A stretch of 64,000 bases of DNA. Origin: Eledone cirrhosa (taxonomy: Eukaryota). Each line of letters starts with the position of its first letter. Position 1 is the first letter of the stretch. Positions 59,670 to 64,000 of the stretch are shown here, piece by piece. Location: assembly GCA_964016885.1 (NCBI GenBank), contig OZ024740.1:159526001-159590000 (forward strand), read 5' to 3'. Under the pieces are notes generated by a model that was not told where the DNA came from, did not search any database, and saw only the letters and a list, made by a program, of their open reading frames with translations. A program made the translations under genes and the position numbers.

Positions 59670-62600
59670 CGAAAATGCCAAAGTTAAAGTCAAATTCACC
59701 TCGTGGACGAGAATGCGAGCACTCCTCTTTGTTTCGCCCGCGGATGGCTAACATAACCCCATCTCCCCCCGCCCCCCACCACCCCCACCCTCCAAACGCA
59801 ATCCAAAACTTCAGAGTTGGTACCATAAATGTAGGCACCCTAAAGGGTCGCGCTAACGAGGTTGTAGAAATGCTTGAACGTAAGGAGGTCGATGTTTGTT
59901 GTATTCAAGAGACCAGGTGGAGGGGTGGGTCTGCTAGATTCATTGAGGGTAAAAAAACGATGTTATAAGCTTTTCTGGGTGGGAAACGACGATGGGCTGG
60001 GTGGAGTAGGAATCATGGTAGCAGAAAAGTGGGCAGATAAGATAATAGACGTAAATAGAGTGAACGACAGAATAATTAAAATACGACTTGTCCTCAATAG
60101 AACTACGGTGACAGTAATATCTGCGTACGCACCCCAATCCGGACTGCCCGGCACTATAAAAGACAGATTCTATGAGACACTGATGCTCACTACCTCCCAA
60201 ATATCTGACAGTGACTATATAATTATTGCAGGCGACCTAAATGGTCACGTTGGACAACATTGTGACGGCTACGACGAAATCCATGGAGGCTATGGGTTTG
60301 GTACTAGAAATGAGGAAGGCTCAAGAATCCTGGAATTCTGTGATGCAAATAACCTAACTATCTGTAACGCTAACTTCAAAAAACGTGACAATCACCTGAT
60401 CACCTATAGATCCGGGGAACACACAAGCCAGGTAGATTATATCCTTACCAGAAGACGTGGCAGAGTGTCTGTTGTAAACACTAAATCCCTCCCCCATGAA
60501 GAATGCACCTCCCAACATATACTGATAATTAGCGACCTCATAGTCAGGACGAGACGTACTCGTCAGCAGAAGAGGACTATCCTCAGGAGAAAAATATGGA
60601 AGCTAAAGGACCCCACAGCCAAAAATAAATTTCAAAACATATTACTTGATGCTTTCGACAGTAAGGAAGAACATTTAGAGTCGGACAATATAGAGGGACA
60701 GTGGGAATTTCTGAAAGTAAACCTGCTGTTGGCGATAGACGAAGTCTGTGGCTGGAGCAGGCCTGTAGGCAGGAGGAGAGTAACATGGTGGTGGAACAGT
60801 AAGGTGGAGGGGTCAATTAAGGCCAAAAAGCAGGCTTGGAAAGTATGGCGGGATGGGGGAAGTAGAGTAGACTATCAAGTGGCCAGGAGGGAAGCTAGGA
60901 GAGAAGTGTACTTAGCAAGAAGGGAAGCTGAGGAAAGAAAGTTCAAGCATGTTCTACAACGCGATGACCAAAAACGTGAGGTGTTCAGGATTGCTAGGCA
61001 ATGCGTCAAGGAAAACCGTGATATTGTCGGGGAGAAGTGTGTACTTAACGATGATGGCATACTTGCCATCACCGACACTGATAAGAAGGTAGCTTGGAAG
61101 TGTCACTATGAAAGGCTACTAAATGAGGAGAATAAATGGGAGAAAGACAGTCTCCCCCATATCGACCCAATAGAGGGACCAGCAGTGTTAGTCGAGGGGA
61201 GTATAATAAGTAAGGCAATCAAGGATATGAAGACAGGTAAGGCGGCTGGGCCTTCGGAAATAGTTGCTGAGATGCTGAAGGCATCTGGCACGGTGGGACA
61301 CACTATGGTCACTCGCATAGTTAACGATGTCATACAGAATGGGGTTCCGAAGGACTGGCATAGCAGCATCATCGTTAACTGTTATAAGGGTAAAGGAGAC
61401 GCCCTAGATAGGAGTAACTATAGAGGCATTAAATTAATCGACCAGGTCATGAAGGTCACGGAAAAAGTAATAGCGCAACTAATCAGAGAGAGAATTGACC
61501 TAGATGAAATGCAGTTCGGGTTTGTGTCAGGCAAAAGTACCACAGACGCTCTTTTCATAGTACGACAACTACAGGAGAAGTTCCTAGCTAAAGGTAAACC
61601 CCTCTACTTAGCTTTTGTCGACTTGGAGAAAGCCTTCGACAGAGTCCCCCGCTCCATTATCTGGTGGGCTCTTAGAAAACTAGGCGTTGACGAATGGCTT
61701 GTGAGGGCTATACAAGCCATGTATAAAGAAACAGTCAGCAAGGTTAGAATTAACAACGAATATAGTGAAGAGTTTAGCGTAAAAGTTGGCGTCCATCAGG
61801 GCTCTGTTCTCAGCCCCCTACTATTTATTATTGCCCTTCAGGCTATAACAGAGGAGTTCAAGACAGGCTGCCCATGGGAACTCCTATACGCAGACGACCT
61901 GACACTCATAGCGGAATCAATGGCCGAGCTAGAGAAGAAATTCCAAACATGGAAGCACGGCCTAGAGTCAAAAGGACTTAAAATTAACCTGGCTAAGACC
62001 AAAGTTCTAGTTTGTAGGAAAGAAAACAAGGCGGCGGTCCCTTCTGGGAAATGGTCGTGCTCGGTGTGTAGGAAAGGCGTAGGTAGAAACTCCATTTTAT
62101 GTCCTAAATGCAAAGTATGGGTGCATAAAAGATGTAGTGGGATCACAGGTAAGCTAACTAAGAACATAGATTTTACATGTGGCCGGTGTTCTGGTGCAAT
62201 AAGTAGCAGCAAGTGCCCACAAAATACTAGCTCTTTCAATTGCGCAGAGGGTTCTATAGAAATAGTGGACAGCTTCCGTTACCTGGGCGATAAAATCAGC
62301 AGTGGCGGAGGGTGCTCTGAAAGTACAGTAGCTAGAGTCAGAACTGGTTGGAAAAAGTTCAGAGAGCTTATACCACTATTAGCTGCTAAAGGGTTCTCCC
62401 TAAAAATGAAAGGCAGGTTGTACGATGCCTGCATACGAACAGCAATGTTGCATGGCAGTGAGACCTGGGCATTGTGTGCAGAGGATATACGCAGACTAGA
62501 GAGGAACGAAGCTTGCATGCTCCGCTGGATGTGTAACAGTAATATACGTGAACGGGAAAGCATAAACGAACTAAGGAAAAAATTAGAGATAAGAGGGATC

Positions 62601-63213
62601 AGATGTTGTTTACTCGAGAGAAGGCTACGTTGGTATGGACACGTGATGCGCATGAAAGTCGATAGCTGTATAACAAAGTGCAGGGCAATAAAGATAGACG
62701 GTAGCCACGGAATAGGCAGACCTAGAAAAACCTGGGACGAGCTGATAAACTCCGACCTCACACACTTACACCTCTCCAAGACAATGTCACTGGACCGAGA
62801 TCTTTGGCGGTACTCAGTAACAGAGAAGACCCGCCTTGCCAGTAGGCATCTCTAACAAAATACACCCCGTCCCACCACCACCACCCCCACCCCATCCACA
62901 CCACCCCGTTCTATGTAAAGTTATGTTGGTGCCGCGCCATCCAGCCCGAAACAAATGAGATCGTGTAGGTGTCACGACAAAAAAAACACACAGTCCACGC
63001 TGTAATGTGGCCGTGTAGGCAACACGGTAAAAACCTCCCAGACCCACACTGTAAATGTGGTTGGTGTTAGGAAGGGCATCCAACTGTAGAAAACCTGCCA
63101 GACAGTCCTATGCGAGCAAGACAATCACTCTTGCCTCAAGTGGGACTACCCCCGTCCAAACCCATGCAAGCGTGGAACACAGACGTTAAACGTTGATGAT
63201 GATGATGATGATG
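59670..63213 (+). mobile_element. Near full-length RTE LINE family A
   Basis: APE endonuclease plus RT ORF, 3' UTR and (GAT)n tail; TA/GA repeats on both sides. Confidence 0.97.
59675..62855 (+). CDS. RTE polyprotein (APE endonuclease, RT, inserted PHD-like finger) with a single frameshift at A7 59951-59957
   Basis: 59675-59968 gives GTINVGTL...CCIQETRW; the 59874-62855 frame continues with YKLFWVG, SAYAPQ, GDLNGHVG, VDYIL, YADD and RRLRWYGHV; removing one A joins the two frames. Confidence 0.9.
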
Positions 63214-63554
63214 ATATACATATATATAGTATATATATATATATAGTATATATATATATGTTTATAAATATATACCATTCAATTATTGAGGTCATCATTT
63301 TAATAATATTTACCGGCACACAAATCTCATGGCTTGTGCATAGATTAAAATCCATTATTGTATTCTATGTATTTTCTTTTGTTTTGTTGTGGTGACTTCC
63401 CATCTGTCAGGGTAGTCTGTGGTTTTGTCTTATTTCAAGGATATTGGAAAGTCATAGTTTCTTTGTGTTGGTGCGTGAAATTTTTGGTTTATCATTAGCA
63501 TGATCTAAACTAATTTTTGTATATCTATTTTTATATATTTTTATATATATATAT

Positions 63555-63856
63555 GGAGGCACATGGCTTGGTGGTTGGAGCATTGGCCTTGCAATCGAAG
63601 GGTTGTGGGTTCAATTCTCGGACCGGGTGATGTGTTGTTTCCTTGAGCAGGACACTTTATTTCATATTGCTCCAGTTTACTCAGCTGTAGAAATGAGATG
63701 ATAGGGACTGGGGTCCCTATCATCTCATTTCTGAGTAAACTGGAGCAATGTGAAATGGGGTGTCTTGCTCGGGGACGCAACACATCGCTCGGACTGAGAA
63801 TTGAACTCACAACCTTTTGTTTGCAAGGCTAATGCTCTAACCACTGGGCCATGTGC

Positions 63857-63859
<3 letters not shown>
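63555..63859. mobile_element. Head-to-head fold-back of the tRNA-SINE 5' half
   Basis: 63555-63708 is SINE sense and 63714-63859 is antisense, hinged on the ATGATAGGGAC-tggg-GTCCCTATCAT hairpin; flanked by (TA)n and (CT)n. Confidence 0.9.
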
Positions 63860-63891
<32 letters not shown>

Positions 63892-64000
63892 CTATATATA
63901 TATATATATATACTATATATATATATATATACTATGTATATACTATATATATATATATATATATATAATCGAATGTATATATATATATATATATATATAT

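Follow-up and report, generated by a model that had tools for sequence, protein, structure and literature searches.

In the genome assembly of Eledone cirrhosa, an abundant SINE folded back head to head on itself carries 15 A>G changes and no T>C on the + strand, spread over both arms. We consider it likely that ADAR edited a read-through RNA from a paralog-like source and that reverse transcription in the germ line placed this RNA in a TA tract. A sequence-only reading had already proposed that ADAR-edited hairpin RNA was written into TA-tract DNA at this site, and that proposal is now supported by an unedited paralog, a second edited hairpin, a sequence context depleted in 5'-G and source-copy pairs at other loci.

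Two A>G-rich hairpins in a ~4-kb unit

The window, the whole stretch of 64,000 nucleotides that was analysed, is C1:159,526,001-159,590,000 within the 3.0-Gb assembly, and base changes were read in the assembly sequence. Coordinates beyond the window end are those of record L049, in which position 1000 is window position 64000. The edited unit measures ~4 kb, from 63214 to ~3.3 kb beyond the window end (~L049:4280). The insert lies in a TA tract as first proposed, but its size is ~4 kb and not that of the 305-bp hairpin alone. The unit and the LINE upstream of it comprise the following features:

59892..63210, + strand: LINE, outside the edited unit; 987-aa ORF (endonuclease, RT, PHD), (GAT)n tail
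63214..63259, + strand: 5' end of the copy; G-interrupted (TA)n tract in common with the paralog, homology starting inside it
63260..63513, + strand: unique flank of 254 bp, present only here and at the paralog
63556..63723, + strand: hairpin 1 left arm; tRNA-like SINE head, sense, to the internal stem-loop; 6 A>G
63698..63723, no strand: SINE internal stem-loop, turning point of the hairpin 1 fold-back
63724..63859, + strand: hairpin 1 right arm; SINE antisense; 9 A>G on the + strand
63860..64000, + strand: TA satellite; C-interrupted (TA)n of the type native to the paralog region
L049:1065-1300, - strand: young SINE of another family, likely a later insertion into the unit
L049:1930-2471, + strand: hairpin 2; fold-back of a Penelope-like terminal repeat
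L049:2472-4280: C-type, then G-type TA satellite, in the paralog's order; likely 3' end of the unit

Hairpin 1 (63556-63859) turns at the element's own internal stem-loop, and its SINE head gave a weak tRNA match to Rfam (28-30 bits). Changes were scored against the consensus of three SINE copies in the window. On the left, A>G falls at 63570, 63577, 63600, 63608, 63620 and 63650, with an additional C>T at 63665; on the right, the + strand shows A>G at 63757-63759, 63771-63772, 63777, 63787 and 63846-63847. With this consensus, every position named in the sequence-only reading proved right. Its estimate of about seven scattered other substitutions agrees with our count of one on the left, the C>T, and six on the right (63776 A>C, 63789 C>T, 63793 T>A, 63818 C>T, 63820 A>T and 63830 C>T); the right arm also has a 6-nt deletion near 63730. 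The suggestion that G at 63600 might be a subfamily variant was not borne out, as the paralog has A there and G accounts for <1% of depth in the contigs from public runs, which is also the case at 63608.

Non-A>G changes are unevenly shared between the arms, with the six substitutions and the 6-nt deletion in 136 nt on the right versus no private change in 168 nt on the left (Fisher p=0.0075). The internal stem-loop is a template-switch hot spot: its stem is extended at 112 places in the genome, for the most part by a short template switch, and many of them have the loop inverted or short local fold-backs. The junction motif was dropped as a finder of full fold-backs, since those inspected among the matches listed (50 of the 112) turned out to be ordinary SINEs with a short extension of the stem or an inverted loop.

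Across 103 background SINE alignments, 67 had no A>G, 27 had one, six had two, two had three and one, a duplicate of an edited locus, had seven. Before this count, 26 polymorphic columns were removed, including those of 63600 and 63608. Against this background, the Poisson probability was 2.9e-4 for the left arm (4 changes counted) and 2.8e-13 for the right arm. An inverted-repeat scan for one-strand A>G, which the sequence-only reading had suggested as a check, covered 157 repeats in 497,210 bases. Four of them showed a G.T-versus-A.C skew at p<=1e-5, and the only true outliers were hairpin 1 (19:0) and hairpin 2 (24:2); the other two (L055:1724 and L049:8452) are TATG microsatellites and were dropped as false positives.

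Hairpin 2 lies 1.1 kb downstream, beyond the window, and carries 27 A>G on the + strand (16 in the left arm, 2 in the loop and 9 in the right arm), scored against the consensus of 21 copies of its repeat family. The layout of this family (tandem and inverted terminal repeats beside an ORF) and its YRDD and YIG motifs were recognized by eye, and by these it looks Penelope-like (RT plus GIY-YIG ORF); a search against Pfam gave no match at E 0.1, and its Rfam matches held no hammerhead. Four other fold-backs of the family showed no A>G bias. As the two arms of hairpin 2 are altered at different sites on the same strand, the hairpin predates the changes. No unedited counterpart appeared in 80 kb around the paralog or among the best 40 of 1474 candidates. 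Hairpin 2 would have belonged to the same RNA as hairpin 1.

Pooled over both hairpins, there are 42 A>G versus 2 T>C (p=1e-10), and 40 of the 42 A>G lie within the paired arms. Sequence context at the focal locus was scored on sites that had not been picked by motif. By 5' neighbour, edited A made up 14/47 after T, 20/86 after A, 5/56 after C and 1/44 after G, the last a significant depletion (p=0.0017), and 18/39 A before a 3'-G were edited (p=2.3e-6). The neighbour-motif check proposed for this locus showed both 5'-G depletion and 3'-G enrichment. Clusters of G>A on the sense strand, the sign of APOBEC, were absent from the two hairpins.

The 3' end of the focal copy is TA satellite, with no element tail or poly(A), and both of its ends sit in TA tracts, where no target-site duplication is readable. 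A downstream SINE at L049:4286 was considered as a candidate priming tail; the paralog lacks it, and its private changes were unmatched among the best 40 of 1639 candidates. The young SINE inside the unit belongs to a family with 1947 candidates, with copies 96-100% identical and a related tRNA-like head. About 1.5 kb past the segment, L049:5749-6442 forms a near-perfect 347-bp palindrome (99.7%) without editing marks.

An unedited paralog and the upstream LINE

The 254-bp flank was found at one other place only, C1:222.417 Mb on the minus strand, 63 Mb away. The two versions are 94% alike, with 14 differences of mixed type of which two are A>G, and both are present in public-run contigs (runs X1-X3, one sample, 90% likeness). 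The paralog has in common with the focal copy the upstream tract, the fold-back junction and the C>T at 63665, and it keeps A at every one of the six left-arm sites and also at 63757-63759; its right arm is shortened. A correction to the sequence-only reading is that the fold-back was already in the source DNA before editing. At four left-arm positions the paralog has private changes where the focal copy retains the consensus, so the focal copy does not come from present-day RNA of the paralog locus. Both losses at the paralog would be accounted for if one deletion had reached from the right arm across hairpin 2.

A C/G-interrupted TA satellite, missing from 187 of 209 records, extends over ~35 kb around the paralog versus ~4 kb at the focal locus, in the same C-then-G order. 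This extent and order make the paralog region the likely source and give the bounds of the copy as 63214 to ~L049:4280. Around the paralog (L121-L125, C1:222.411-222.446 Mb), the single C or G interruptions are local, and kilobase blocks of the satellite are tandemly duplicated. A>G-type variants of the satellite number 12 in 2562 nt at the focal locus (L049:868-4280, three pieces) versus 2 in 1500 nt at the paralog, and T>A-type variants 16 versus 2. As the T>A-type excess accompanies the A>G-type one, the satellite variants do not demonstrate editing of the UA repeat.

The LINE at 59892-63210 is near full-length and young, with an ORF start that looks frameshifted and many copies 90-99% alike. 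It shows 13 private changes in 1984 bp (0.66%), none of them A>G, compared with a flank divergence from the paralog of 5.5% (14/254 bp), and it is not present at the paralog. The LINE is likely younger than the copy. Given its lack of A>G, its younger look and its absence at the paralog, it was probably not the carrier. A 3' transduction by this adjacent LINE was rejected, because the paralog lacks the LINE and because LINE and flank differ in age.

A>G-changed copies at other loci and their sources

Five motifs in sense orientation, each of which forces two A>G, gave 2, 6, 2, 5 and 1 matches, and two antisense motifs gave 0 and 2, the first of these missing the focal arm through its A>C. These motif searches yielded six further heavily A>G-changed repeat loci:

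C919: 27 A>G in 342 nt
C1:205.48M: 31 A>G in 287 nt
C3:31.23M: 27 A>G
C2:95.52M: 40 A>G
C2:337.75M: ~32 A>G in the 3' part of a LINE
C10:25.64M: 9 plus 4 A>G

Matches at L135, L136, L138, L133 (4 A>G) and L140 (4/11) had the forced changes or few more, and L143 gave no alignment to the consensus; none of these was counted as edited. Every antisense-edited arm found lies in a hairpin with a sense arm. As a measure of abundance by one motif, both Gs occurred in 2 of 24,186 SINE heads, both of which are heavily A>G-changed elsewhere too. Sources were looked for at four of the six loci and found for three; that of the C2:337.75M LINE copy was not traced, its flank being a repeat family.

The source at C25:2.98M gave rise to a 662-nt copy between TA tracts at C2:95.52M, in which 40 of 56 substitutions are A>G. 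The edits occupy three stems, and relative to the consensus A>G is absent from the SINE tail, which is unpaired. One stretch, with 12/44 A edited, has its pairing partner in sequence upstream of what was copied; at the new site this partner is missing. Source and copy each have private changes, and the 3' end of the copy adjoins a run of 200 N. For the pair C28:49.95M and C3:31.23M, 27 of the 28 differences between source and copy in 661 nt are A>G, and 0/91 A are changed downstream of the SINE. The source has antisense partners just upstream and 6 kb upstream, and none was found in ~18 kb around the copy, which terminates at the 3' end of a repeat. This copy is also without ~83 nt of the C28 source (L162:1396-1398), outside the edited part, possibly through a template jump.

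In the third pair, C26:20.18M and C1:205.48M, an edited SINE was copied together with flanking sequence that is 99% identical and stops at the (GAT)n tail of a LINE. Editing is absent from an antisense SINE located 1.1 kb away from the C1:205.48M copy, and no clear duplex partner emerged at the source. Within this copy (L132:1570-1600), an edited A-rich run has grown to ~25 G, a new microsatellite apparently seeded by editing. The source region (L174, C26:20.181-20.184 Mb) contains a tandem array of three units, each made of a SINE and a unique spacer; a LINE tail follows two of the units.

In each of the three pairs, the copy is 5'-truncated and consists of a repeat with its flank; two of the copies end at the 3' end of a repeat. 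Since the partner is present only at the source in two pairs, editing took place on the source RNA, before copying. In the two pairs tested for context, 3/54 A with a 5'-G were edited, again a depletion, and 16/52 A with a 3'-G (p=0.15). The 3'-G preference noted in the sequence-only reading thus holds at the focal locus but did not reach significance in the source-copy pairs.

Proposed origin and rival explanations

An ADAR2-like gene on C6 matches human ADAR2 (E 7.6e-80) and has an RTKIESGEG motif. It is the intron-poor member of four deaminase-family loci (L199-L206), the others lying on C1 (146.45 Mb and 320.73 Mb) and C25. The serine in this motif corresponds to the one that PMC5625713 links to 3'-G preference. 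We envisage that a template switch at the SINE internal stem-loop would have created the fold-back in the source DNA, that read-through transcription then passed through it in the + sense and that ADAR would have deaminated the RNA where it was double-stranded. Reverse transcription in trans could then have been the work of a LINE or Penelope enzyme, followed by fixation in the germ line. As the focal 3' end lies in TA satellite, annealing of UA-rich RNA to a TA-rich target is the likeliest start of this reverse transcription, which may have ended by 5' truncation in the upstream TA tract. Later decay would have cost the source the distal part of its right arm and probably hairpin 2 as well; the young SINE and the LINE would be later gains of the copy.

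Duplication of the 4-kb segment as DNA, then overwritten in place by its own edited transcript through RNA- or cDNA-templated conversion, would fit a focal locus without tail or target-site duplication. The partners of both hairpins are in place here, so that a source RNA is not required at this locus. It would, however, need two rare events, and the near-perfect palindrome just past the segment was left untouched. The partner is confined to the source in two of the other pairs, and the antisense SINE near C1:205.48M escaped editing; we therefore regard in-place conversion as improbable. An origin of the Gs in RNA-derived reads in the assembly (polishing, gap filling or contamination) has in its favour that the Gs over the arms are known from assembly sequence rather than raw genomic reads, that the best public run contained 0.58 of the sampled words when ~0.61 would be reachable without multiply edited words, and that one edited copy is on a 98-kb unplaced contig and another adjoins an N run. 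Yet the copies retain ancestral bases lost in the present sources and have changes of their own, unlike RNA of the sequenced animal; the edited A-run at C1:205.48M has expanded into a G-run; the focal locus lies within N-free sequence; and the public-run contigs contain both flank versions. These points weaken an assembly artefact as the source of the Gs, and we give it little credence.

Polymerase eta has a 5' T/A preference, which the edited sites have in common with it, and a process at the level of DNA or enzyme could involve polymerase-eta-type WA>WG errors, an adenine-misreading RT or deamination of DNA in hairpins or RNA:DNA hybrids. ADAR is able to edit DNA in hybrids, according to work cited in PMC12925331. 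Against such a process, the changes end where the predicted duplex ends (in the unpaired tail at C2:95.52M and downstream of the SINE at C3:31.23M), A>C or A>T is not in excess, editing of the cDNA strand would yield sense T>C, and in two pairs the duplex partners are found only at the source. Accordingly, we hold this very improbable. The probability that the arms derive from SINE subfamilies already carrying the alleles, or that the skew arose by chance, is close to nil. G at the 63620 position does occur in some other copies and is commoner in contig depth, but among the best 40 of 4883 candidates no SINE copy exceeded 96% likeness with the left arm or 85% with the right, so that no subfamily explains hairpin 1. 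The pair of Gs in 2/24,186 heads, both at heavily changed loci, and above all the unedited paralog with A and the same junction, refute this possibility.

Relation to known systems and meaning

Non-LTR elements are known for 5' transduction and for trans-mobilized retrocopies. The three pairs resemble these in being 5'-truncated repeat plus flank, with two ending at the repeat 3' end; they differ in carrying RNA edits, and the focal copy differs in ending in TA satellite without a recognizable tail. Avian retroviruses (Rous-associated virus as well as avian leukosis virus) were found to be A-to-G hyper-edited (Felder 1994; Hajjar and Linial 1995), as cited in the review PMC12925331. As described there, the clusters are likewise A>G of ADAR type and lie in an element that is reverse-transcribed, an inverted-repeat region included. 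In contrast, our copies stem from cellular read-through RNA (SINE, Penelope-like and unique sequence), are fixed in the host assembly and have identifiable unedited sources. APOBEC editing of DNA is described for LTR retrotransposons in vertebrate genomes (Knisbacher and Levanon, PMC4866542; Zaranek et al., PMC2873906). The clusters in these papers are similarly one-directional and strand-biased relative to an unedited relative, but they are G>A from cytidine deamination of cDNA, whereas ours are A>G within double-stranded parts of RNA; the study filter described there (PMC4866542/PMC2873906) selects for G-to-A and against A-to-G.

Hyper-editing of repeat-derived dsRNA by ADAR occurs across Metazoa, with octopus among the highest, as reported by Porath et al. 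(PMC5625713). Dense A>G in inverted repeats and 5'-G depletion are common to that work and our loci, although the former concerns RNA reads and the latter genomic copies. The 3'-G preference of octopus RNA is weak there (20-25% of sites) versus 18/40 edited sites at the focal locus. The closest known cases are ADAR-hypermutated proviruses and APOBEC-edited retroelements, to which a SINE-containing read-through RNA with source-copy pairs is added here. Judged by title and the start of the abstract, searches of open-access full text turned up no paper on edited cellular RNA that had become fixed as retrocopies.

If retrotransposition of ADAR-edited read-through RNA is the correct reading, normally temporary RNA edits have been turned into inherited mutations, whereas A-to-I edits are otherwise treated as non-heritable. 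ADAR would be shown to act on RNA that is later retrotransposed, and each copy would be the fossil of a single RNA molecule from the germ line, preserving a record of the loci read through and of the duplexes formed, with the edits as a barcode tying copy to source. Their rarity, 2/24,186 SINE heads by one motif, implies a small mutational load. Edited copies can also imitate editing in comparisons of RNA with the genome. A wider reading, unlikely as we see it, is that ADAR acts in this lineage as a heritable mutagen for any duplex-forming transcript, with edited read-through RNA, including its unique sequence, copied in the germ line into new sites and also back over its own locus; if true, it would open a direct path by which RNA editing sites become A>G substitutions fixed in the genome. 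The edited copies make it testable whether germ-line editing contributes to genome evolution in a heavily editing animal.
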